Shown here: positions 30 through 36,274 of the stretch, piece by piece
How the letters are laid out: each line of letters opens with the position of its first letter
Numbering within the stretch: the first letter of the stretch is position 1
Sequence record: OZ035783.1
Source: Kagunavirus PDP21P8
Reading direction: 5' to 3' (one strand)
DNA: 43,594 nt
The notes under the pieces: generated by a model
Seen by the model: only the letters and a program-made list of their open reading frames with translations
Told to the model about the DNA's origin: nothing
The model's database searches: none
Position numbers and translations under genes: made by a program

Positions 30-1280
30 ATGAGTATTCAGCTATCTGCACCCCAGGCACTGTTCCTGAATTGCGATAACAAATACAAAGCCTATGTCGG
101 CGGCTTTGGCAGCGGCAAGACATTCGTAGGCTGCCTTGACCTGCTTACGTTTATGCTCAAGCACCCCGGTACGCGCCTGGGCTACTTCGGCCCTACATAT
201 CCGGCTATCCGCGACATCTTCTACCCGACATTCGAGGAAGCTGCTAACCTGCTAGGCCTTGATGTGCTGGTTAAATCCGGCGACAAAGAAGTCGTTGTCA
301 CACGCGGTAAGACAGTGCTCGGGACGGTTATCTGCCGTTCTATGGATAATCCTGGCTCGATAGTTGGCTTCAAAATCGCGGCTGCGGTCGTCGACGAGTT
401 GGACGTATTGAGTCGCGAGAAAGCGGAGCTGGCGTGGAACAAAATCGTCGCCCGTATGCGCCTTGTTATCCCTGGCGTAACTAACCACATCTCCGTCACC
501 ACGACGCCGGAAGGGTTCAAGTTCGTCTATGCCAAGTTCAAAGAGAACCCGACGCCGAGTTACTCAATGGTGCAGGCTTCCACACACGAGAATGCACGTT
601 TCCTGCCGCCGGATTACATCAGCTCGCTCACAGAGACTTACCCGGCGCAGTTGATTAACGCGTATCTGAACGGCGAGTTCGTCAACCTGACCTCCGGCAG
701 CGTCTACTACGCGTATGACCGCCGTAAGCACCGCAGCAAAGAGACAATTCAACCGGGCGACACTCTGTACATCGGCCAGGACTTCAACGTCACGAAGAAC
801 GCCAGCGCCGTGTACGTGCAACGTAAAGACGGCTGGCACGCGGTAGCCGAGCTGAAAGGCCTGTTCGATACGCCGGACACCGTGCGTGTAATTACTGAGA
901 AGTGGAAGTCGCAAGGCCACCGCATCGTCGTTTACCCTGATGCAAGTGGTAAGAACCGCAAGACCAACTCGGCATCAATCTCAGATATTGCATTACTTCA
1001 GCAGGCCGGGTTTGATGTTCGAGCTAAATCCGCCAACCCACCGGTTAAAGACCGTGTTTTAGCCGTGAATACCGCACTGGAAAAAGGTAAGCTGTGGGTT
1101 AACGACCACTTATGCCCAGAGATAGCGAAGACGCTGGAGCAGCAGGCATATGATGATAACGGAGAGCCTGCTAAAGACGGCATCATCGACCATATGGCGG
1201 ATGCTCTCGGCTATCCTGTAGTTTACGAGATGCCAGTGGTTAAACCAGTAATCAACATCCCGGTGACTTTCGCACTTTAA
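30..1280 (+). CDS. terL: terminase large subunit
   Basis: 416 aa; Walker-A-like GGFGSGKT near N-terminus; first gene of the structural block; its ATG overlaps the stop of the terS-like frame if the window ends are joined. Confidence 0.8.
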   Translation: MSIQLSAPQALFLNCDNKYKAYVGGFGSGKTFVGCLDLLTFMLKHPGTRLGYFGPTYPAIRDIFYPTFEEAANLLGLDVLVKSGDKEVVVTRGKTVLGTVICRSMDNPGSIVGFKIAAAVVDELDVLSREKAELAWNKIVARMRLVIPGVTNHISVTTTPEGFKFVYAKFKENPTPSYSMVQASTHENARFLPPDYISSLTETYPAQLINAYLNGEFVNLTSGSVYYAYDRRKHRSKETIQPGDTLYIGQDFNVTKNASAVYVQRKDGWHAVAELKGLFDTPDTVRVITEKWKSQGHRIVVYPDASGKNRKTNSASISDIALLQQAGFDVRAKSANPPVKDRVLAVNTALEKGKLWVNDHLCPEIAKTLEQQAYDDNGEPAKDGIIDHMADALGYPVVYEMPVVKPVINIPVTFAL

Positions 1281-1292
1281 GAGGATTATTCA

Positions 1293-2765
1293 ATGTTAAC
1301 TATGAACGGTCAGAATCAGGGTGTTAAGACTAAACACCGGGAATGGCTGCATAACTTCGATAAATGGCAGAAGGTACGCCACGCGCTGGAAGGCGACCTT
1401 ATTCGCTATCTTCGAAATGTCGGGAAGAATGAGCCGGACCCGACCTACGCGGCCCAGCGCCAGGAAGAATATGAGAACGGCGCTATCTGCTACAACTTCA
1501 CTAAACGCACCCTGGCAGGGATGGTAGGTAGCGTCATGCGCAAAGACCCAGAGCAGATTATCCCGCCTGAACTGGAGTACCTGTTGCGCAATGCCGACGG
1601 TTCCGGTGTTGGTCTGTGGCAGCACGCGCAGGATACGCTGATGGAGATTGACTCGGTAGGTCGTGGCGGGTTGCTGGTGGACGCGCCGGAGACCGCCGCA
1701 GCAACGGCAGCCGAACAGAACGCGGGGCTGTTAAACCCGGTAATCGCATTCTATACCGCAGAGAACATCATCAACTGGCGATTGACTCGCGTCGGTTCGG
1801 TTAACCGTGTGACAATGGTCGTGTTGCGTGAGGTATGGGAATACTCGGAACCTGGGGCAGAGTTCGAAACAAAGTTCGGTGAGCAATACCGCGTTCTCGA
1901 TTTGATTGATGGTCGCTACCGCCAGCGCATTTACCGCTTCGATGCAGAAGGTGGCGCTCATGGTGACGTAATCGAAATATTCCCGGAACTTGGCGAACAG
2001 TTGCGCGGCAAAATCCCGTTCACGTTCATCGGGGCGAGCAACAACGACGCAACCATCGACGATGCGCCTTTGCTACCGTTGGCTGAGCTCAATATCGGAC
2101 ATTTCCGCAACAGCGCGGACAATGAGGAGTCCAGCTTCGTTGTAGGGCAGCCCACGTTGTTCATCGCCCCAGGCGAGAACATGAGCATGGAACAATGGAA
2201 AGAAGCTAACCCGCACGGTGTGCGCATGGGGTCGCGTTCAGGCCACAACATCGGCTACGGCGGCAATGCGTTTCTGGTTCAGGCGGGTGAGAACAACCTC
2301 GCAAAACAGAACATGCTGGATAAAGAGAACCAGGCCATTCAGATTGGCGCGCAGCTTATCACCCCGACGCAGCAAATCACCGCCGAATCGGCCCGCCTGC
2401 AACGTGGTGCTGATACGTCTGTTATGGCAACAATCGCACGCAACGTAAGCATGGCGTATACCGATGCGCTGCGCTGGGTAGCAGCGATGCTAGGGCTTAG
2501 TGACGGTACTGAAATCGAGTTCAAGCTGAATATGGAGTTCTTCCTGCAACCTATGACAGCTCAGGACCGCGCTCAGTGGATGGCGGACATTAACGCTGGC
2601 CTGCTGCCTGCCACCGCTTACTATGCAGCATTGCGTAAAGCAGGGGTGACTGACTGGACCGACGAGGATATTCAGAACGCTATTGAGGATGCACCGTTGC
2701 CGTTAGGTGCTGTCGCTCCGGTAGCGGGGGAGATTCCGCAGTCGGCGCAGCAACAACAGGAATAA
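1293..2765 (+). CDS. portal protein
   Basis: 490 aa ORF directly downstream of terL; size and position typical of portal; no specific motif verified. Confidence 0.65.
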   Translation: MLTMNGQNQGVKTKHREWLHNFDKWQKVRHALEGDLIRYLRNVGKNEPDPTYAAQRQEEYENGAICYNFTKRTLAGMVGSVMRKDPEQIIPPELEYLLRNADGSGVGLWQHAQDTLMEIDSVGRGGLLVDAPETAAATAAEQNAGLLNPVIAFYTAENIINWRLTRVGSVNRVTMVVLREVWEYSEPGAEFETKFGEQYRVLDLIDGRYRQRIYRFDAEGGAHGDVIEIFPELGEQLRGKIPFTFIGASNNDATIDDAPLLPLAELNIGHFRNSADNEESSFVVGQPTLFIAPGENMSMEQWKEANPHGVRMGSRSGHNIGYGGNAFLVQAGENNLAKQNMLDKENQAIQIGAQLITPTQQITAESARLQRGADTSVMATIARNVSMAYTDALRWVAAMLGLSDGTEIEFKLNMEFFLQPMTAQDRAQWMADINAGLLPATAYYAALRKAGVTDWTDEDIQNAIEDAPLPLGAVAPVAGEIPQSAQQQQE

Positions 2766-2769
2766 AGAA

Positions 2770-2800
2770 AAAGGCCCCATTACGGGGCCTTAGTTTTATT
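2770..2800. terminator. bidirectional rho-independent terminator
   Basis: hairpin AGGCCCC-loop-GGGGCCT flanked by A-run on the left and T-run on the right; sits between convergent genes. Confidence 0.6.
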
Positions 2801-3080
2801 TCTTTCCTAATGCTTTCTCGATTGCTCTGTTTGCCAGATTCAACGGATGGTCTTTATGGCAATCATCGGAAGATACTGCGCAAACATCCTCAACGTAATC
2901 GCGAAGCTGGCGAAGAGCTTCAAGTAACTCGGGTGCTGAGGAAATAAGTTTTGAGTTAGCCAATTTTACTGAGGCCTTCTCCTGCATACTCATTACCTCC
3001 GCCACATAAACGTCACCCGCCCATATAGCCGTTCCGCAATTAACCCATTCACCGTTCGTACCTTTAAATTTGTTAGCCAT
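2796..3080 (-). CDS. hypothetical protein (antisense moron in head module)
   Basis: 94 aa ORF on minus strand; strong SD AGGAGG 7 nt upstream of ATG; own promoter and terminator. Confidence 0.55.
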   Translation of the reverse strand: MANKFKGTNGEWVNCGTAIWAGDVYVAEVMSMQEKASVKLANSKLISSAPELLEALRQLRDYVEDVCAVSSDDCHKDHPLNLANRAIEKALGKK

Positions 3081-3104
3081 TTTACGCCTCCTGTTTAAGT
3101 TAAC

Positions 3105-3136
3105 TGAATAGTACCCTATTATATTGGTGTCTGCAA
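3105..3136 (-). promoter_or_regulatory. early-type promoter with AATAG-N4-CTATT operator
   Basis: minus-strand reading TTGCAG-17 nt-TACTAT; inverted repeat GAATAG-tacc-CTATT overlaps -10; 23 bp identical to site at 14310-14332. Confidence 0.5.
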
Positions 3137-3180
3137 ATATTATTTTTATGCGTTACACTGTCGATACTACAGGAGGGCTT

Positions 3181-4224
3181 ATGAGCTTACTTACATCTCT
3201 AATCAGCCACCAGATATGGCTGCAACGCACCGCATCCGGCGAGGTGAAAGACCTCGCGCCGTTCATCCATGAGATGCGGGATGAAATTAAACGGCAGGTG
3301 CTGTTATTCGGTGACGACAGCCGCAGCGCCGCGCGACTGAATAAACTGTTACGTGACCTGGAAGAAGCGCTAACTGGACTTACAGGTGACTGGCAAACAA
3401 AGCTGACAGAAGACCTTAAGGAACTGGCGGCGTATGAGGCTGAGTGGAACGTAAAAACGCTGACGACTAACGTTAACGCGGAATTTGTTACGCCTACCGC
3501 CGAACAAGTGTGGGCCGCCGCCGAGTTCCAGCCCGTATCGTTAAGCGACAAACCGGCCGACTTCGCTAAACTGATGTCGGGCTGGGGTGAAACCGAAGTC
3601 GCGCGCCTTGTAACCGGCGTTAAGATGGGCTTTGTGCAAGGCCAGACAACACGGCAGATTGTTAAGAATATTGTAGGCGCTGGTGGACTAGCGGACATAT
3701 CCGAGCGCAATGCGGCTACTGTAATCCGCACCGCGCTGTCTCACGTGTCAAACGAAGCCCGTAACGAGACGTACCGCCAGAATGACGACATTATCGAGAA
3801 GTACGAGTGGGTGTCTACGCTGGACAGCCGTACCAGTACTATTTGCAGAGCCAGGGACGGGATGACGTGGGAAATTGGTAAAGGGCCAATGCCCCCCGCC
3901 CATCCGAATTGTCGAAGTACCACGGCACCGGTGATAAGTTCCGAGTTCGACTTCCTCGATAAAGGCGCAAAACGCGCGGCTAAGGGTGCAGACGGCGGTA
4001 CTCAGGTAAGCGCAGACACCACTTACTACGAGTTCCTGAAACAACAACCGGCATGGTTTCAGGATGAAGCACTCGGGCCGACCCGCGGTAAGATTTTCCG
4101 CAACAGCGGTATATCACCGGAAGAGTTTCGCGTAATATCTGTAGATGGTTTCGGGAATCCGCTGACGCTTAAGCAGATGGCGGAACTCGATAAACGTGTT
4201 GCTGATTATCTGAAAGGGGAATAA
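3181..4224 (+). CDS. head morphogenesis protein (Mu F / SPP1 gp7-like)
   Basis: ATG 3181 with SD AGGAGGG; C-terminal PAHPNCRSTT motif resembles the conserved H-x-NCRC of Mu F-like proteins; follows portal. Confidence 0.65.
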   Translation: MSLLTSLISHQIWLQRTASGEVKDLAPFIHEMRDEIKRQVLLFGDDSRSAARLNKLLRDLEEALTGLTGDWQTKLTEDLKELAAYEAEWNVKTLTTNVNAEFVTPTAEQVWAAAEFQPVSLSDKPADFAKLMSGWGETEVARLVTGVKMGFVQGQTTRQIVKNIVGAGGLADISERNAATVIRTALSHVSNEARNETYRQNDDIIEKYEWVSTLDSRTSTICRARDGMTWEIGKGPMPPAHPNCRSTTAPVISSEFDFLDKGAKRAAKGADGGTQVSADTTYYEFLKQQPAWFQDEALGPTRGKIFRNSGISPEEFRVISVDGFGNPLTLKQMAELDKRVADYLKGE

Positions 4225-4685
4225 TGATGGGCTTTTTCAAAGTAACTGATGTACCGTCACGTCGCGTAGTCCAGTACGCCCGCGTGTCTGGCTCTGGCGA
4301 GAACGTGGTATTTATTGAAGATGAAAGTGTACTCGGTACACCTGTAGACGATATGCCGTTCGCAGATAAGACCGGTATTGCGCTGCCAGCGGCGGGTATG
4401 CTTTATGAGATTCCGTATCTGGCGGACGCGGGCGATGTGTATTTCTCTGTGCAACCGCAGGACACGGAACTGGCAGACGGCAGCGCAACTATCACTGTCG
4501 AAGTTAAGGCGGGCAAAGCACCGTATGCGCTGACCTGGTACAAAGACGGTAAGGAAGTGGTAAACGCCCCGGAAGAGGCTTTGTCTCTGACGGTTAATGC
4601 GGTGGGTGAATACTTCGTTAAAGTTACCGATGCCGATGGTGTAGAGGCGGTAAGCAAAGCGGCGAAGGTTAATAAGCCAGAATAA
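4224..4685 (+). CDS. Ig-like domain protein
   Basis: C-terminal APYALTWYKDGKEV...GEYFVKVTD resembles I-set Ig fold signature; TAATG overlap with upstream gene. Confidence 0.5.
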   Translation: MMGFFKVTDVPSRRVVQYARVSGSGENVVFIEDESVLGTPVDDMPFADKTGIALPAAGMLYEIPYLADAGDVYFSVQPQDTELADGSATITVEVKAGKAPYALTWYKDGKEVVNAPEEALSLTVNAVGEYFVKVTDADGVEAVSKAAKVNKPE

Positions 4686-4689
4686 ACTG

Positions 4690-4711
4690 AAGCCCCGAAA
4701 GGGGCTTTTTA
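4690..4711 (+). terminator. rho-independent terminator
   Basis: AGCCCC-gaaa-GGGGCT hairpin followed by TTTTT. Confidence 0.6.
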
Positions 4712-4774
4712 GCGCCTGCGATTATTCCAGTTATTCCACCAAATTGTAAATATTGGAATAAACTATTCGAATAG

Positions 4775-4803
4775 TTGACTTTTCACTAAAAATGTGCTAA
4801 GCT
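4775..4803 (+). promoter_or_regulatory. putative sigma70-like promoter
   Basis: TTGACT-17 nt-TAAGCT; overlaps the perfect palindrome AACTATTCGAATAGTT (4761-4776). Confidence 0.3.
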
Positions 4804-4809
4804 CCACCT

Positions 4810-5004
4810 GAGCTTGTGAAGTATGAACAAGCGACCGCGGCGCGGGCAGGTAACGGAGCGGGACGTAAGTCCTGAGTGTAGTTACGCTGACGCGTTCGGA
4901 AGGGCCATACTCTATTGCTTGTGTAAAAAGTAACTGGTTTACTGAGATTACGCCGTTTCTATGTTTAAATGATAAGGACTAGCGCCCCGCTTTATGGCGG
5001 GGCT
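4810..5004 (+). ncRNA. candidate short transcript (ncRNA or mRNA of a 36-aa peptide)
   Basis: ~200 nt between putative promoter 4775-4803 and terminator 4982-5010; only ORF is 36 codons (4823-4933) with a weak RBS. Confidence 0.2.
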
Positions 5005-5010
5005 TTACTT
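4982..5010 (+). terminator. rho-independent terminator
   Basis: GCCCCGC-tttatg-GCGGGGC hairpin followed by TTTACTT. Confidence 0.55.
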
Positions 5011-5027
5011 ATCGAGAAAGGAGAAAC

Positions 5028-5414
5028 ATGAATCTTAAAGCAACTGTCGTAGCAGGAGCATGTTTCATCATCCTGTTATACACGCACGGCTACTATCAAT
5101 ACCGCAGCGGCTGGAACGGAGGCAGGGCTAATCTAGTTTCGCAGCAACAGCAGAAAGCACAGGCTGAGCTAGCGAAGAAAACACAACGGCAGCAGCAGGA
5201 CGAATCAAAGGCCGCCGCCGCTGACAACGAAGGCAAGACGAAATCAGAGGTGATTACCCGTGAAGTCGTTAAGTACATTAAAACGCCTGGCCGCAGCGTG
5301 TGCACTTTCGACGATGCTCGCGTCCTGCTCAAGTCCCGCGCCGTCGCAAACGCCAATTCCATCCCCGGATACGACGATGATGCAGCCGCCATGCAAACTG
5401 GCCGCGCCAAGTAG
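5028..5414 (+). CDS. i-spanin (Rz-like)
   Basis: 128 aa; N-terminal TM segment (VVAGACFIILLY), Gln/Ala/Lys-rich coiled-coil periplasmic region; contains an embedded +1-frame lipoprotein ORF. Confidence 0.55.
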   Translation: MNLKATVVAGACFIILLYTHGYYQYRSGWNGGRANLVSQQQQKAQAELAKKTQRQQQDESKAAAADNEGKTKSEVITREVVKYIKTPGRSVCTFDDARVLLKSRAVANANSIPGYDDDAAAMQTGRAK

Positions 5415-5523
5415 CGATGCCGATGAGGATTTAGCCATTGACGTTCAGAACACAGAATGTGTACGGCAACTGCGTCTGAAAGTGTTCATGTTGCAGGATT
5501 ACGTGAGGAATATTCTGGAATAG
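5260..5523 (+). CDS. o-spanin (Rz1-like lipoprotein)
   Basis: 87 aa; signal peptide with lipobox LASC; Pro-rich mature region; starts inside the Rz-like gene in +1 frame and extends past its stop. Confidence 0.55.
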   Translation: MKSLSTLKRLAAACALSTMLASCSSPAPSQTPIPSPDTTMMQPPCKLAAPSSDADEDLAIDVQNTECVRQLRLKVFMLQDYVRNILE

Positions 5524-5605
5524 TTGCCTTGCATGTTGGAATAATTTATTCTTGACATGTAAATCCGGGTGGCCCGGGTTCCAACGTCCAGGGGACATAC
5601 TGACT

Positions 5606-6307
5606 ATGAATCGTTTTTTACGTTATCCGTTCCAGGAAGAAGCTGGGGCAGAAGATAAAGCTGGTGGCGGTGACGCGCCGAAAATGTTCACCGCTGAAGA
5701 AGTTCAGGCGCTGATTGAGAAAGAAGTTGCCGGGCTTAAGGCCAATCAGGAAGCATTGCTGGCGGAGAAGAAAGAAGCCGCTCGTAAAGCAAAAGAGGCC
5801 GAAGAAGAACGGCAGCGCGCGCACCAGGAGGCGTTAAAAGCCGCTGGTAAGATGGACGAGTTCGAAAAGACGATTCGTAGCCAGTATGACCCGGTGTTAG
5901 CCGAGAAAGATGGTCGCATCTCCAAAATGGCAGAGCGTATCCTCGGCAGTGAACGTAAAGCGGTGTTAGGCTCTTTCGCGGGCGACTTTATTACCCCGGA
6001 AGCAGTAGACATTCTTGCTCCGTTCGTTAAGACTGAGTTCGAAGGCGATGACGTGGTTACTAAGTTTGTAGGCGCAGACGGCAATGTAATCACGACTGAC
6101 CCGGAACAGTTCCGCAAATACCTGCGGGAACACAAAGCATTTTCGCATTTGATTAAAGCAAATGCAGCTTCCGGCGGCGGGGCTTCCGGTAGCAAAGGCG
6201 GCGGGGCCGCACCAGCGTTTAAAGACATGAGTGAAGCGGAGCGTTTAGCTCTGTATAAATCGAACCCTGCCGAATTTGAACGGCAACTTAAAGCCCTGAG
6301 GAAATAA
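5606..6307 (+). CDS. scaffolding protein
   Basis: ATG 5606 with SD AGGGGA; Ala/Glu/Lys-rich helical protein directly upstream of the major capsid gene. Confidence 0.55.
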   Translation: MNRFLRYPFQEEAGAEDKAGGGDAPKMFTAEEVQALIEKEVAGLKANQEALLAEKKEAARKAKEAEEERQRAHQEALKAAGKMDEFEKTIRSQYDPVLAEKDGRISKMAERILGSERKAVLGSFAGDFITPEAVDILAPFVKTEFEGDDVVTKFVGADGNVITTDPEQFRKYLREHKAFSHLIKANAASGGGASGSKGGGAAPAFKDMSEAERLALYKSNPAEFERQLKALRK

Positions 6308-11873: not shown

Positions 11874-12506
11874 ATGTTTCTGTATGAAGAATTTGAAAAG
11901 ATACCCGCGTCAAAACGGGCGGTATCATACCGTAAAACAATCTGCGGTGTCGGTATCAACGACGCTGATTTTACCGCTAGTATTTTCAACGGCAAAAAGT
12001 CTGTTAATCACCCAGTATATGATATTTGGTATGCGATGATATTCAGGTGCTACCACGGGGTCGCCAAGCACCCAACATACGCAGGTGTGGTAGTGTGCGA
12101 AGACTGGCTATATTTCTCCAACTACTTTAAATGGTATAAAGATAATTACGTAGATTGTTGGCATGTAGACAAGGATTTACTTACAGATGCCAAAGAATAC
12201 TCACCGGAGACATGCATCTTTGTCCCAAGAGTTTTAAACAACTTCCTAACCGACAGCGCAGCGGCCAGAGGAAACCTACCAATAGGCCTTACTTATAGAA
12301 AAACAAACGGCAAGATACGGTGCCGTGTTAACAATCCCATAACCGGGGTACGGGAAAACTTAGGCGATTTTATTGACTTGGACGAAGCCATCAAGGCCAG
12401 AACGTTGCGGAAATTGGAAATAGCAGAAGAACTTAAGCCGCTTATGGATTCCATAGACGGGAGAATATGCCCAAGAGCCGTTTCGGTAATTAATTCACAA
12501 CGATAA
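11874..12506 (+). CDS. AP2-like DNA-binding domain protein, possible homing endonuclease
   Basis: C-terminal GLTYRKTNGKIRCRV...LGDFIDLDEAIKA resembles AP2 domain; gene is visibly AT-richer than flanks; no HNH motif identified. Confidence 0.35.
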   Translation: MFLYEEFEKIPASKRAVSYRKTICGVGINDADFTASIFNGKKSVNHPVYDIWYAMIFRCYHGVAKHPTYAGVVVCEDWLYFSNYFKWYKDNYVDCWHVDKDLLTDAKEYSPETCIFVPRVLNNFLTDSAAARGNLPIGLTYRKTNGKIRCRVNNPITGVRENLGDFIDLDEAIKARTLRKLEIAEELKPLMDSIDGRICPRAVSVINSQR

Positions 12507-12534
12507 GAAAAAGGCCCCTTTCGGGGCCTTTTTC
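12507..12534. terminator. bidirectional rho-independent terminator
   Basis: AAAAA-GGCCCC-tttc-GGGGCC-TTTTT between convergent genes. Confidence 0.6.
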
Positions 12535-12537
12535 TCA

Positions 12538-12765
12538 CTAATCAATGTTACTCCTGTACTCCCGTAACTTTTCAAGACTTTCAATTGCTTCGTTAAGGTC
12601 CGTGTCTGCGTCCTTATGCCCTCTGCCACCCATGCATAACAGTTTCTTTAACGCGTGCTGTAACGCGGGGTCGTGGATAACGAAGGCCCTTAGCACATCA
12701 TAAACATCACATGTAATGGAATCGCCTGCGGTGTTGGTGAGTGTATGGTCATATTTTGAAGTCAT
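12538..12765 (-). CDS. small protein, DUF3310-like (tentative)
   Basis: 75 aa; pattern D-x-YDV...HALKKLL..GGRGHK..DL.EA resembles the DUF3310 phage family from memory; ATGA-coupled to upstream gene. Confidence 0.4.
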   Translation of the reverse strand: MTSKYDHTLTNTAGDSITCDVYDVLRAFVIHDPALQHALKKLLCMGGRGHKDADTDLNEAIESLEKLREYRSNID

Positions 12766-13892
12766 CCCAGCATCTCCGGTGAAATAGTTAAACGTGCGAC
12801 CTCGCCAAATTCGGCGCTATAAGTAATTACATTTGCACTACGGCCCGACATCCAACCTCCGCGGGAGGCGTAGGCGTCTTTAGCCGCTAAGGTGCGGTGT
12901 TGCTCAACAATCATGTTACGGCTTTCTACAATCTTCTGGTGGTGCAGATGGCCTACGTGGGCGTAGCTGTAAACACTCTCGCCGAACGCTTTACGGAACT
13001 TGGCAATCATAACAGGTTCAATAGCGTCGAATCGTGCTTTATGCCCGTGATGGAAGAACAGCGTCGTTTTGCCGTGTTGCACCATCTTGTAAACATCCGG
13101 TGACGTATCGACGAACACACGCGGCTCATTGTCATACAGCGTACTGAACATCTCAGCCAACCAAATCATGCCACTTTCGTCGTGATTCCCTTGCACGATA
13201 AGCAAGCGAACATTTTTATGCTTAACCAGCGCCATATCGACAACACGGCGGACCATGCGAATCATGTAGCGGACAAGTTTCTGGTAACGGGTGTCGGCGT
13301 CAAGGGCGTGACCGCTTGCAGGTGTAACGGCAACCAGACTATCGAAGTGCGCGAAGTCGCCCAGCAGGTTAATAACCCCAGTCCCCGCATCCGGTGCTTT
13401 CTGGAATGCCGCATCGAACCAACGGGAGAACAGGTCTTCTGCAATCTTCATATCCCAGTCGTCGCCACTCTCGTCGGCCCAGGCCAGCATACCGAGATGG
13501 AAATCAGACACAGTGTAAAGGTTGAGTAGCTTGTCGTCCCGTTTGGCGCGAACGGCTTTAACAGGAGCAACGGGGGTAATCTCCGACTTCATGCCCTCGA
13601 TTATGGCTTTCATCAACTCGACCTGACGTTCGGCATCGGTGTCGGTCTTAACCCATTGCAACTTAGTGTTGCCGAACTCATCAACCAGCGACGATGTGCC
13701 TTTAATCTTGTAGCCATCTGGTACAAGGTGGCTAACGTCACGCCCGTGGCCTACACCTTTCTTAGCCAGCTTCGCTTTACGGATACGAATAACTCGGTCT
13801 GAGATGCCGTATTTACGGGCGATGTCTACGTTCTTCATCCCGGCGTTCAATTCTTCCTGTAATTGTTCGTCGGTTATTTTCTTCCGGGCCAT
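12762..13892 (-). CDS. HTH-fused calcineurin-like metallophosphoesterase
   Basis: 376 aa; N-terminal HTH (DIARKYGISDRVIRIRKAK); motifs SDFH, LLGDFAHFD, QGNHDES, HHGH, GHLHH match the D-x-H / GD / GNH[DE] / GHxH metallophosphatase set; SD GAGGAAG. Confidence 0.7.
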   Translation of the reverse strand: MARKKITDEQLQEELNAGMKNVDIARKYGISDRVIRIRKAKLAKKGVGHGRDVSHLVPDGYKIKGTSSLVDEFGNTKLQWVKTDTDAERQVELMKAIIEGMKSEITPVAPVKAVRAKRDDKLLNLYTVSDFHLGMLAWADESGDDWDMKIAEDLFSRWFDAAFQKAPDAGTGVINLLGDFAHFDSLVAVTPASGHALDADTRYQKLVRYMIRMVRRVVDMALVKHKNVRLLIVQGNHDESGMIWLAEMFSTLYDNEPRVFVDTSPDVYKMVQHGKTTLFFHHGHKARFDAIEPVMIAKFRKAFGESVYSYAHVGHLHHQKIVESRNMIVEQHRTLAAKDAYASRGGWMSGRSANVITYSAEFGEVARLTISPEMLG

Positions 13893-13957
13893 GCTTACTT
13901 CCTCGTGTTTAGGATTTGTCCTATTTAACCACAGTGCATTCCTTTAAATAAAGGCGA

Positions 13958-14284
13958 CTATTTACTTTCTGCGCCTATTGCCCACCCAGTCATTACCATT
14001 TGCAGGCGGGTAGCGGTCAGTAGGCTGTAAAACGCGTCTCCGTTTTTCTCTACAGAACGTATTACCGTGTATGTTACGGCTTGCGGAGGCAGGCCCGATT
14101 TACCAACCTCTACGGCTGCCTCACACTCGCGAACGGTAGAGTCCTTAAATGCCTTTACAATAGTAGGGTCGGCTCTATCAAGCACACCAGAAGTCATAAG
14201 AACGGATTCACTAAACACCTGTTCACACGGAGACCCAAAAGTAGCAAAAGACATAAAACCAAGAGCTAACACTAATTTACGCAT
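13958..14284 (-). CDS. secreted protein (signal peptide, no lipobox)
   Basis: 108 aa; N-terminal MRKLVLALGFMSFATFG hydrophobic signal; two Cys; SD GAGGAA; first gene of antisense cassette. Confidence 0.5.
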   Translation of the reverse strand: MRKLVLALGFMSFATFGSPCEQVFSESVLMTSGVLDRADPTIVKAFKDSTVRECEAAVEVGKSGLPPQAVTYTVIRSVEKNGDAFYSLLTATRLQMVMTGWAIGAESK

Positions 14285-14309: not shown

Positions 14310-14341
14310 TGAATAGTACCCTATTATATTGGGGTGTGCAA
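14310..14341 (-). promoter_or_regulatory. early-type promoter with AATAG-N4-CTATT operator
   Basis: minus-strand reading TTGCAC-17 nt-TACTAT, nearly identical to promoter at 36243-36274; ends ~26 nt upstream of the ATG at 14284. Confidence 0.5.
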
Positions 14342-14448
14342 GTAGTGTGCTAGAATAAGTTTGCGCCTAGTGTCGCACACGAAAAGCGGGTGGTTCCCGT
14401 CTGGCGCGTCAACCTTAACCTGTAACCTCTTAACCAAAGGACTAAAGA

Positions 14449-27208: not shown

Positions 27209-29482
27209 TTACTTAGCATAACGGTACACCTCTCCCCCAGCCCATGTTAACGGGAACCCTTCGGCCCACTCAGGTAATGAGCATAGCAGGTCACCCATCT
27301 CTTTAACCGTGTACTCTGGCGTGTCTGGCGTTTCGGCAACACATTCGTCATGTACGTGGAGTACAATTGGGTAGCCCGCCGCCTCGACCGTCAGGAGTCC
27401 GTTAACCAGTAAATCACGGCACAACGCCTGGATGATGTTTTCACACAATTTTCCGCCGTGGGTGTACAAAGTTGTCCACTGGCGGGTGGTCTGATTTTCA
27501 CCCTGATACTTAATGCGGACGTTAGTAGTAACGCGCCCATCCTCGTCAGTCTCTTTAGTGACGCTTAAGCCTATGCCAGGGTAGGACATGATGCGCCCAG
27601 ACGGCAGTTCCACGCACAACCACCAACCCGGAACCGGATTACCGTGGTTGTCTTTTTCTTTGGTACGCCAGATGCGGATGGCTCTGTCGCCGTTAAGGCG
27701 TACTCGGGCCCCCGCCCAAAACTCTCGTCCCGGATTTCTGATGGCGGCTATCACCGAATCCTTAAGGTCATTCCAGAATTTCACTGTTTCCGGATGGGCT
27801 TCCCGCCACATGCGCTTAATGGCGTCACAGGTGCGCCAGACTTCTTTAGGCAGCACATAAGAGGCCCGTTCATCTTTTTTACCAGGCTTTGGCGGGCGTT
27901 TAGCCTCCTGAATTCTGGCCCATTCGTAGCCACGGGCGGTAGCCGCCCAAATGTGGTCGGGGAACGTGCCCCGCATTGTCTCTGTCATTTTAAAGAGGTC
28001 CAGCCCGTAAGTTTTAGCCATAGTCATAAAAGCCCCTACGCCCCCCTCGTAGCCGAGGCCGAGTTCGCAACATTTCCCGACCTGACGTAGGTCCTTACGG
28101 GTGGCTTTTAGTTCTACGGGGTCCATGCCAAACATCTTGCCCGCGGTGGCGCAATAAATATCAATCCCTGCGCGGAAGGTCTCAAGCGCGGATGTCTCCC
28201 CCGCGGTCCAGGCCAACCCGCGCCCTTCTACGTTTGAGTAGTCGGCAACGAGCAACTTATTACCCTTTTCAGGGATGATGCAACTGCGAACAGTCGAGGC
28301 TGTCAGCTTGGATACGTCGAAACGACGGTGCGCCCGACCCTTTAGCAGCAGATTGATGCCGAACGATAGGGGGTTGAGACGACGGTTCCAGTCTTCGTCG
28401 GACTCCCACGGCTGGCGTACAAGTTTCTTCTCCTCGTTAGTCGGGTCATCATGATAGTACCCGCGCGACAGGTTCTGCGGCTGGAACCCTTTACCCGCAA
28501 ATCGTAAAGTGCGCTTTGCCCCACCGTACTGGATGCAACCGCGGCGGCGGCCGTCTTTGGACCGTCCTAGCAGGAGCGGTTTGTATTTTGTCGACGCCGT
28601 GGAGGCCGCGCCGAGGCGCATCTCAATGATTGTGCGCGCATCGTCAGGTAAGTCGTCGTCCTCTAGCAAACCTTCGAGCGTTGCTTTCTGCGCATTATAG
28701 ATATTGTAGGCCGGTGCCAGCTCCCGAAGGATTGGCAGGAAGTCTTTACCCGTTAGCTTCCCGCCAAATTTAGCCCTGGCCTCGTTTTTTAGCTCTTGCT
28801 TGTGGCGTTCAACTGCTGCTACCGCCGCCTCAGCAAGAGCCGCATCAACAAAGAAGCCTCGGTCGTTGATTAACTGGTCAAGTTCAAGTACACGGTCCTC
28901 GAAATCGGAGTTACCCCAACGTGGCAGCTTATGGAAGACTTCACGCATCGCTGTGATGTCGCTCACGGCGTACTTGATGAACAGCGCCCATTCGTCCGGG
29001 TGCGTTTCGGCGGTGTAGCGGCGGATTTTATAGTTCTTCGGGGTTGGTTTGGAGAAACGCTGAATCAGAGCCTTGCCACGTTTATCTTTCGCGTTGTCGG
29101 CGGATACGCCCAGCACTTCGCATAATGCGTCAAGTGAACCCGGCAGCGCGTGGCGAAACGCCCAAATCATAGTGTCAATGGTGTTGCTGACCGGAATATC
29201 GAAGCCCCAGCAGTTCTTCATGATGAGCCTATCGAAAAGTCCACCGTTATGCCACACCATCTTAATGCGACTGTTTGGCTTCACCAGACGGCGTAACGCG
29301 CGGTGTAAATCTCCCGGCATGTCGCTGCCGTCAGTGCAGTCCCATACCTGAACAGGCTCGTCATCAAAAGCATAGGTGCAGATGAGCACTTCGGTAGTCG
29401 GGTGTTCGGCGTAAGCATAGGAGCCGACTTTCTTCAAATCGGCTTCGGAGAAGGTTTCAAAGTCTAAGAACAGATAACTCAT
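27209..29482 (-). CDS. DNA polymerase, family A, with 3'-5' exonuclease domain
   Basis: FLDFETFS exo motif; pol motif A VADYSNVE, motif B RQVGKCCELGLGYEGG, motif C LHVHDE. Confidence 0.85.
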   Translation of the reverse strand: MSYLFLDFETFSEADLKKVGSYAYAEHPTTEVLICTYAFDDEPVQVWDCTDGSDMPGDLHRALRRLVKPNSRIKMVWHNGGLFDRLIMKNCWGFDIPVSNTIDTMIWAFRHALPGSLDALCEVLGVSADNAKDKRGKALIQRFSKPTPKNYKIRRYTAETHPDEWALFIKYAVSDITAMREVFHKLPRWGNSDFEDRVLELDQLINDRGFFVDAALAEAAVAAVERHKQELKNEARAKFGGKLTGKDFLPILRELAPAYNIYNAQKATLEGLLEDDDLPDDARTIIEMRLGAASTASTKYKPLLLGRSKDGRRRGCIQYGGAKRTLRFAGKGFQPQNLSRGYYHDDPTNEEKKLVRQPWESDEDWNRRLNPLSFGINLLLKGRAHRRFDVSKLTASTVRSCIIPEKGNKLLVADYSNVEGRGLAWTAGETSALETFRAGIDIYCATAGKMFGMDPVELKATRKDLRQVGKCCELGLGYEGGVGAFMTMAKTYGLDLFKMTETMRGTFPDHIWAATARGYEWARIQEAKRPPKPGKKDERASYVLPKEVWRTCDAIKRMWREAHPETVKFWNDLKDSVIAAIRNPGREFWAGARVRLNGDRAIRIWRTKEKDNHGNPVPGWWLCVELPSGRIMSYPGIGLSVTKETDEDGRVTTNVRIKYQGENQTTRQWTTLYTHGGKLCENIIQALCRDLLVNGLLTVEAAGYPIVLHVHDECVAETPDTPEYTVKEMGDLLCSLPEWAEGFPLTWAGGEVYRYAK

Positions 29483-36242: not shown

Positions 36243-36274
36243 TTGCACACCCCAACATAATAGGATACTATTCA
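36243..36274 (+). promoter_or_regulatory. early-type promoter with AATAG-N4-CTATT operator
   Basis: TTGCAC-17 nt-TACTAT with AATAG-gata-CTATT overlapping -10; ~30 nt upstream of ATG 36306. Confidence 0.5.

Follow-up and report, generated by a model that had tools for sequence, protein, structure and literature searches.

A probable exchangeable accessory cassette, antisense to the head genes of a Kagunavirus-like phage, and the family of its product

This analysis concerns a short antisense unit in the genome of Kagunavirus PDP21P8 (sequence record OZ035783.1); the whole stretch that was analysed, 43,594 nucleotides in length, is referred to as the window. The unit contains an open reading frame (ORF) of 94 codons, ORF94, which is read from the minus strand and lies between two plus-strand genes. 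An original prediction, made from the DNA letters and their translations, had taken these neighbors for head genes and PHROG matches bear this out, with a portal gene on one side and a Mu-F-like (MuF) head-morphogenesis gene on the other (Table 1). The perfect Shine-Dalgarno (SD) sequence that had been proposed for the minus-strand ORF is likewise present, with AGGAGG placed 6 nt upstream of an ATG start codon, and this SD is also kept in the phages K-02, Shashou and SHAK7693. The convergent stop codons of the portal gene and ORF94 are separated by 30 nt, and this gap is occupied by a hairpin with the sequence AAGGCCCC-ATTAC-GGGGCCTT.

Comparison of ORF94 with its orthologues in K-02 and LM02P1 gives dN/dS values of 0.17-0.28, and a word-indexed search returned 122 homologs at E<=1e-3. 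Because of these two results we judge ORF94 to be a real gene. Its G+C content is 44.6%, compared with 55.6% for the portal gene, 53.7% for the MuF gene and 50.9% for the window, a deviation in composition of the kind by which morons are recognized. The DNA flanking ORF94 matches 335 phage records, mostly at 80-91% identity. Since these are mainly Escherichia coli Kagunavirus and Salmonella Jersey-type phages (Guernseyvirinae), the window is classed as a Kagunavirus-like virulent siphophage. A protein 100% identical to that encoded by ORF94 (P0001) was found on five contigs of at most 44.6 kb.

Table 1. Features of the cassette, of its neighbors and of the related promoter-like modules, with positions in the window.
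Feature	Position	Strand	Remarks
Large terminase gene	30-1280		
Portal gene	1293-2765	+	DUF4055; phrog_145, E=2.4e-149
Whole mobile unit (promoter module, SD leader, ORF94, hairpin terminator)	2766-3136	-	found intact in the post-Hoc slot of LM02P1
Intrinsic-terminator-like hairpin, bidirectional	2771-2791		stem 8 bp, loop 5 nt; preceded by an A-run and followed by a T-rich tract
ORF94	2796-3080	-	94 aa; cytoplasmic protein; PF27050 / phrog_1273
Shine-Dalgarno AGGAGG	3087-3092	-	CCTCCT as written on the plus strand
Promoter-like module, copy 1	3105-3136	-	its end is 24 nt upstream of the ORF94 ATG (3080)
Copy 1, -10 element TACTAT	3108-3113	-	predicted start ~3101
Copy 1, -35 element TTGCAG	3131-3136	-	17-nt spacer to the -10
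Palindrome AATAGT-ACC-CTATTA	3107-3121		overlaps the -10; candidate operator
Mu-F-like head-morphogenesis gene	3181-4224	+	PF04233; phrog_241, E=8.5e-156
Ig-like Hoc-type protein gene	4224-4685		
Hairpin ending the tail-module island	12505-12535		same type as the ORF94 hairpin; -27.4 / -22.8 kcal/mol
Antisense island in tail module	12538-14284	-	108-aa unknown, 376-aa SbcD-like exonuclease, 75-aa ATPase-like piece
Promoter-like module, copy 2	14310-14341	-	ends 25 nt before the ATG (14284) of the antisense tail-module island
Promoter-like module, copy 3	36243-36274	+	ends 31 nt before ATG 36306; rightward small-gene operon including a DUF551 protein
Palindrome sites, named	3107, 14312, 40999	+	
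Palindrome sites, named	26579, 30231, 32769, 32813, 36258, 37694	-	

Inspection of the flank-matching records reveals that the interval between the portal and MuF genes is highly variable. ORF94 occupies this slot in only 3 of the 335 records (K-02, EF2-1 and LM08P1), in addition to the window. In fFiEco03 and many others the slot is empty, and the two head genes are separated by a 69-bp spacer with a different hairpin. Elsewhere the cargo is another gene: a 173-aa clamp-like or "RusA-like" protein (phrog_3007) in Shashou, Sciku and SHAK7693, a 93-aa orphan with the same promoter module in AMO_3701M, a 217-aa amidase in EcoPhCCP1, a 55-aa protein (phrog_35937) in phiSD1 and a three-gene island (61, 76 and 102 aa) in SXAU_B4. 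There are at least six occupied states as well as the empty one, which places the slot within the definition of an accessory region given by Silas et al. (bioRxiv 10.1101/2023.04.06.535777). The cargo is always on the minus strand and always abuts a GGCC(C/T)C hairpin. ORF94 had originally been read as a moron, and the comparison of presence and absence among relatives supports this, since empty, swapped and relocated states were all encountered and only certain close relatives have the gene at this junction.

The manner of the exchange is evident from the sequences that surround the cargo. When units carrying ORF94 and the clamp-like gene (the latter from Shashou and SHAK7693) are aligned, their flanks are identical as far as the SD at one end and, at the other, from the last codon and stop onward (AAATAA-AACTAAGGCC). 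Because the flanks agree to these limits, the alignment indicates that the ORF is replaced precisely, within a conserved expression "socket". LM02P1, another Kagunavirus, has the unit in full, with TTGCAC at one end and the GGCCCC hairpin at the other, but in the slot that follows the Hoc-type gene, and the sequence beyond both ends is unrelated. The post-Hoc slot of fFiEco03 contains the clamp-like gene, so that each of these two cargoes is found at two Kagunavirus slots, and the promoter and hairpin motifs are repeated at several sites of the window. A similar arrangement is that of the PeSL (promoter-early stem-loop) mobile regulatory cassettes of T4-type phages, said to have been described by Arbiol et al. 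in 2010, in which a repeated promoter and stem-loop reportedly surround small ORFs of varying kind and would let recombination shuffle these between sites; minicircle intermediates are said to have been proposed. The likeness lies in a repeated promoter and stem-loop around small exchangeable ORFs at several sites. The present cassettes differ in that they belong to another phage group and use other motifs, and in that the order is promoter-ORF-hairpin, antisense to late genes.

A recognisable relative of ORF94 is present in 30 of 50,697 phage records. Five of the 30 are of the Guernseyvirinae type, and in four of these five ORF94 is in the portal-MuF or the post-Hoc slot. The orthologues of K-02, EF2-1, LM08P1 and LM02P1 are 85-87% identical to ORF94 and are labelled hypothetical where they are correctly annotated. 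Some labels in the public records are at odds with their content. The EF2-1 orthologue (PQ571290.1, 13870-14151) has been named 'Efflux RND transporter permease subunit', the label of the 173-aa cargo varies by record between 'DNA polymerase III sliding clamp' and 'RusA-like resolvase', and SHAK7693 (OR594180.1), which is collinear with Kagunavirus, has been filed as Autographiviridae/Kayfunavirus under a 'vB_EcoM' name.

The bidirectional terminator that was originally placed at 2770-2800 is well supported. A terminator scan calls the hairpin at 2771-2791 on both strands, its folding energies are -18.2 and -18.1 kcal/mol (z = -4.7 and -3.6), and none of 200 shuffled sequences was equally stable. 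Moreover, the stem covaries among relatives, with a compensatory change from C-G to T-A (GGCCCC/GGGGCC versus GGCCTC/GAGGCC). On this evidence, which is at the level of sequence, the cassette has its own factor-independent terminator, and the hairpin is predicted to end the portal and ORF94 transcripts alike. Four copies of this hairpin family are present in the window (2765, 12505, 23793 and 29495). A search of the whole window against Rfam gave no matches.

On the other side of ORF94 is a module of 32 nt, TTGCASACNCCAAYATAATAGGRTACTATTCA, of which there are exactly three copies in the window against an expectation of zero. The similarity of the first two copies extends slightly further, with 91% identity between 3105-3139 and 14310-14344. 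At all three copies the SD and ATG are on the strand that reads TTGCAS-17 nt-TACTAT, and this fixes the likely direction of the module. The leader that precedes ORF94 is 21 nt long and includes the AGGAGG. The second copy precedes the antisense island of the tail module, in which the 108-aa protein matches phrog_14165 and the 376-aa protein is an SbcD/Mre11-like DNA-repair exonuclease (phrog_704).

The -10 element of the module is overlain by a palindrome, AATAGT-N3-CTATTA, of which the window has 10 occurrences with no more than one mismatch, where 0.2 would be expected. In the leftward replication region it falls within the spacers of three minus-strand promoters of the TTGACA type (26579, 30231 and 32769). 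The conservation of this palindrome makes it plausible that the promoter is, as had been proposed, operator-bearing. As a side observation, the presence of the palindrome at two promoter classes, the TTGACA type and the TTGCAC type, looks like control by one regulator. The spacer of the empty slot in fFiEco03 also contains a related sequence, ATAGTATGCTATTA (ATAGT-N3-CTATTA).

The original prediction held that the ORF94 protein has no recognisable motif. This proved to be incorrect, as the protein clearly belongs to PF27050 (Phage_P22_Y8K6) and to phrog_1273, a family that it matches over residues 2-93 with E=1e-15. The PF27050 assignment derives from the precomputed annotation of homologs, which is present on all the homologs among the matches listed, including the identical P0001. 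When 1.84 billion cluster representatives were searched with a profile, 21,105 matched at E<=1e-3, which gives a family size of about 21,000 clusters at 50% identity. In phage P22, profiles built from the homologs select a single ORF, orf78 (29076-29312), with E=1.4e-8 (profile A1) and 8e-11 (profile A2). This gene encodes a protein of 78 aa, about 8.6 kDa, and is located in the PL operon between ral and orf87/gene 17. P22 orf78 resembles ORF94 in its N-terminal GxW motif, its variable middle and its helices, (L)IAAAPELLEAL ... AI.KALG. It differs in context, since it is a same-strand gene of the PL early operon in a temperate phage and ORF94 is a single-gene antisense unit in a head module.

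Members of the family share a distinctive layout. An N-terminal (M)xEFKGTxGPW motif is followed by a middle that differs widely among members in length and sequence, by NAxLIAAAPELLEAL, by another helix and by a C-terminal AI.KALG. The C-terminal helix block reads APELLEALRQLRDYVED...HPL..A..AI.KALG, and a hypervariable beta-hairpin region is framed by the N-terminal FKGTxGxW motif. Across 18 C-terminal codons, APELLEALRQLRDYVEDV, lineages of the enterobacterial subfamily differ from one another by 9-15 synonymous and only 0-1 non-synonymous changes. Because synonymous changes are so many and non-synonymous changes so few, the codon comparison indicates that the block is under intense purifying selection, and the saturation of the synonymous sites rules out recent recombination as the source of its conservation. 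A diversity-generating retroelement may be ruled out as the source of the variable middle, since the variation consists of unrelated segments and indels. An AlphaFold2 model of ORF94 (34 sequences, pLDDT 81) places a beta-hairpin at residues 18-28 and helices at 36-47, 49-67 and 79-90.

Several peculiarities of the family were noted in passing. In the enterobacterial subfamily residues 66-78 of ORF94 (about 2847-2885 in the window) form a C-x7-C-H-x2-H pattern, DVCAVSSDDCHKDHP, in which Cys66, Cys74 and His78 are well conserved; Cys is lost in more distant members, so that any metal site would possibly be limited to this subfamily. Unusual architectures occur in P0258, P0244, P0240 and P0107, some of which are tandem duplications of the whole module. 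In one family member an insertion of about 70 aa separates the APELLEAL helix from the last helix, and in one the C-terminal block is fused to an unrelated N-terminus. Based on these duplications, the insertion and the fusion, the C-terminal helices appear to act as a separable unit. The window contains no second copy of the PF27050 family. Complete E. coli genomes gave no match to the lambdoid-type homolog, and a search of GTDB genomes with the narrow subfamily gave one convincing match (Siccibacter) and a short match of 15 residues (a Deinococcus metagenome-assembled genome).

The positions of the homologs in other genomes bear on what the protein might do. In lambdoid prophages the homolog follows KilR and precedes Gam/RecT or Erf/SSB, and the neighborhood of the P22 homolog includes ral, 17, kil and abc, with sieB also nearby. 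Antisense islands with the homolog in first or second place occur in swi2 and the Skatevirus phages, where they lie within the structural module, and also in INT55 and in three uncultured-phage contigs (L010, L013 and L015); in Akira the homolog comes third in such an island. The islands of Akira, L010 and L013 adjoin lysis, MuF or terminase genes. In L015, which represents another siphophage lineage, the homolog heads its antisense island, again at the junction of portal and MuF. Beside this may be set the PF27050 genes found in antisense islands that abut portal or MuF genes in unrelated siphophage lineages (L015, 5001-5291; L068, 3495-3791; L008, 4001-4309). It seems from these comparisons that the portal-MuF junction is a recurrent landing site for early-type genes across several groups of virulent siphophages, Kagunavirus being one among them. 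At 45 IMG/VR loci the neighbors are of the nin/ea type, and include DksA/TraR zinc fingers, ParB-like proteins, Kil, CIII, NinB, ArdC-N, a methylase, DUF551 and MazG. Among the 93 neighbors at these loci no family is dominant, and there is no sign of a fixed gene partner.

The island of swi2 and the Skatevirus phages carries the ORF94 homolog and, at its end, a clamp-like gene, which shares its PHROG with the alternative cargo of Kagunavirus. The possibility that the Kagunavirus cassettes are recent deletion derivatives of this island was considered and rejected; the island has another promoter and another terminator, and identity between the clamp-like proteins is only about 30%.

Taken together, these results suggest that 2766-3136 is an autonomous, horizontally exchangeable accessory cassette, a moron in a variable hotspot, whose product probably acts in host interaction or counter-defence rather than in the virion or in core replication. 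We assign this reading a probability of roughly 0.6. The moron or accessory-region status follows from the presence and absence of the unit, from the swapping of its cargo, from its location in a second slot in LM02P1 and from its atypical G+C content. It agrees with the independent choice of a family member, UDP0110 of phage Akira, as an accessory gene by the algorithm of Silas et al. That ORF94 is specifically an anti-defence protein is a guess from genomic context. The cassette may be pictured to work as follows. The sigma-70 RNA polymerase of the host would start at about 3101 and transcribe it leftward as far as 2771, in the early or middle phase of infection, and by virtue of the common 32-nt module it would be co-regulated with the SbcD-like nuclease island and with the small-gene operon of the right arm. 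The AATAGT-N3-CTATTA palindrome may bind a phage regulator, and the hairpin at 2771-2791 would shield the portal gene from antisense transcription. Swaps of cargo would probably proceed by recombination within the repeated promoter, leader and hairpin sequences. In the weakest step of this scheme, ORF94 would be a non-essential, stand-alone early protein. Its invariant helices would serve to dock it on a conserved factor, either of the host or of the phage, and its variable hairpin would tune the specificity of docking.

A number of observations weigh against this interpretation. The first group concerns the cassette. The original prediction gave ORF94 and the tail-module island the same promoter; the 32-nt module is indeed shared, but a consensus promoter scan did not list the copy at 3105-3136. 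In addition, its hexamers agree only moderately with the sigma-70 consensus (TTGCAG 3/6 and TACTAT 4/6, 7/12 in total). For these two reasons the module as a promoter is a well-supported prediction and not a fact. The published Kagunavirus RNA-seq study (PMC12645636) distinguishes three coarse classes only, does not report the slot genes, and has host tables as its supplements. When 10 small early proteins adjoining promoter modules were scanned for a regulator of the palindrome, no helix-turn-helix was found, only a DUF551. Furthermore, the spacer of the empty slot in fFiEco03 is a different sequence without a clean excision scar, so that cargo may have been either gained or lost.

The second group concerns the protein. 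Uniformity of the C-terminal block is in part a selection effect of the word-indexed search, and the nearly invariant positions of the broad family are limited to L, I, A, P, L, L, L and the final I.KAL. ORF94 has no match in NCBIfam, in PADLOC or in an older copy of Pfam that is without the PF27050 model; the same copy of Pfam, searched with 128 diverse family members, gave scattered chance matches only. Sequences in the PDB were not significantly matched by single-protein or by profile searches, and the ORF94 model has no meaningful fold match among solved structures, resembling only uncharacterised phage proteins in BFVD (TM ~0.7). The search for remote homologs and related structures that was originally suggested has placed ORF94 in a family but has given no characterised homolog. 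None of the characterised anti-defence proteins, among them Ocr, Ral, Gam/Abc2, Ard, Acr, Tad and Gad, was found to be similar in Pfam, NCBIfam, the PHROG categories or PDB sequences and folds, which are general libraries, none of them dedicated to anti-defence, and the literature on PF27050, phrog_1273, the family motifs and P22 orf78 yielded no report on function. Finally, the main texts of the preprint of Silas et al. and of a related Nature Communications paper (PMC12373910) do not mention a phenotype for UDP0110 (QBZ71465.1, phage Akira), a PF27050-family member that is 35% identical to ORF94 and is listed in Supplementary File 3 of the preprint as picked from a variable accessory region.

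Comparison with known systems is instructive here. The moron concept of Hendrix and Juhala, reviewed in 'The moron comes of age' (PMC3594210), refers to extra genes of lambdoid phages. The ORF94 cassette is like these in having its own terminator, in lying between genes that are adjacent in relatives, in its deviant G+C content and in its horizontal spread, and its promoter-like module would correspond to the promoter that a moron brings along. Classic morons are genes of temperate phages; they are for the most part expressed by the prophage, and the lysogen often gains from them. The ORF94 cassette differs in that its phage is virulent and Kagunavirus-like, in that it runs antisense to the late operon, and in that its promoter-like module is a copy of one that serves early or middle units of the phage itself. 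The accessory regions of Silas et al., hotspots of variable and often counter-defence genes from which 200 accessory genes were screened, offer a close parallel, in that conserved core genes flank a hotspot of highly variable small genes. Many of the accessory genes in that work have counter-defence phenotypes or trigger cell death, and in the main texts none of these phenotypes was found to be reported for the PF27050 family.

A broader proposal may be formulated, namely that PF27050 is a very abundant class of counter-defence or host-takeover proteins, in which the C-terminal helices, as an invariant 'effector', attach to a bacterial target that is itself conserved and the hypervariable N-terminal hairpin changes under an arms race, and that Kagunavirus sockets, working through recombination, plug such genes ORF-precisely into several antisense sites in the late region. 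We regard this generalization as speculative and, as a whole, unlikely to hold.

The main rival to the interpretation of ORF94 as a host-interaction or counter-defence gene is that its product assists in the replication, recombination or repair of phage DNA, for instance as a modulator of a nuclease, of SSB or of an annealing protein. Three lines of evidence are consistent with this idea. First, the promoter module is common to ORF94 and to the island with the SbcD-like exonuclease. Second, the alternative cargo of the socket is the sliding-clamp-like or RusA-like protein of phrog_3007. Third, homologs adjoin Gam/RecT, Erf/SSB, SSB with DUF3310, and ParB-like genes. However, no partner is constant over the 45 diverse loci, neither a motif nor a fold for nucleic-acid binding or enzymatic activity was found, and most close relatives replicate without ORF94. 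This rival is considered rather unlikely.

It has also to be considered that ORF94 acts between phages, in superinfection exclusion or competition, or that it is a selfish passenger that confers no benefit. The company of sieB, gene 17 and ral in P22, the sporadic distribution of the family and the silence of the two main texts named above on any phenotype of UDP0110 would all agree with such a role. Against it, the C-terminal block combines saturated synonymous sites with zero amino-acid change, which points to long-term selection for function, and the ORF94 sequence is without a membrane segment of the Imm/Sie kind. We consider this explanation improbable.

Less probable again is the notion that ORF94 is incidental and that the socket, made up of a divergent promoter region and the bidirectional terminator, serves mainly to regulate the late head operon, whether through transcriptional interference or through antisense transcription, with the cargoes as passengers. 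The flanks are conserved as the cargo varies, the hairpin is predicted to terminate the portal transcript too, and the palindrome occurs at many promoters, with a related ATAGT-N3-CTATTA even in the spacer of the empty slot. These points are outweighed by the purifying selection on ORF94 (the dN/dS values given above) and its membership of a huge conserved family, and by the many relatives that have no socket, for which reason the socket must be dispensable for expression of the head genes.

Last, a role as a minor virion or head-assembly protein, suggested only by the position between portal and MuF and by relatives that adjoin these genes in other siphophages, is close to refuted: at the structural loci of siphophages ORF94 and its homologs are always antisense to the structural genes, none being co-oriented among virion genes at the loci examined, in temperate phages the homolog is in the PL early operon, and ORF94 is missing from about 99% of related phage records and can be replaced by unrelated genes. 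In agreement with the original prediction, under which homologs should not be conserved virion components, they are located in early or accessory regions.

The type of cassette, as moron or accessory region, is already known, as are the protein family in Pfam and PHROG and the close orthologues in GenBank, and taken alone ORF94 is a routine accessory gene. The ORF-precise exchange of cargo within conserved flanks at two alternative sites is a neat natural example, if an unsurprising one to a phage genomicist. The slot provides a tractable system in which to learn how virulent phages shuffle accessory genes and a ready site for the insertion of payloads into therapeutic K1-type coliphages. PF27050 is a very large family with a notable pattern of conservation and variability, and an easily handled E. 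coli phage could yield its first functional annotation.

Some further features of the window were noted. The post-Hoc region (4686-5027) is a second variable slot, in which K-02 has a plus-strand ORF of 100 aa. In the window it consists of 342 nt without a long ORF and contains a hairpin (4690-4707), a minus-strand promoter-like site (4750-4721) that faces this hairpin almost directly, a plus-strand TTGACT-17-TAAGCT at about 4775-4805 and an ORF of 36 codons (4823-4933). It could encode a small RNA or a micro-ORF, with a fold z-score of only -1.9 and no match in Rfam. A strong terminator (4984-5003) is placed immediately ahead of the spanin genes. These consist of an Rz-like i-spanin (5028-5414) with an embedded ORF for a lipoprotein o-spanin (5260-5523), and the pair is situated inside the head module, with the Hoc-like gene on one side and a scaffold-like gene (5552-6307) on the other, distant from any further lysis gene noticed in the window. 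In the antisense island of the tail module, the match of the 75-aa ORF to ATPase-like PHROGs is confined to their C-terminal third (positions 150-219 of 235 in one case), and the ORF is possibly a remnant or part of a gene that has been split. A plus-strand ORF resembling an HNH endonuclease (11874-12506) converges on the terminator of this island.

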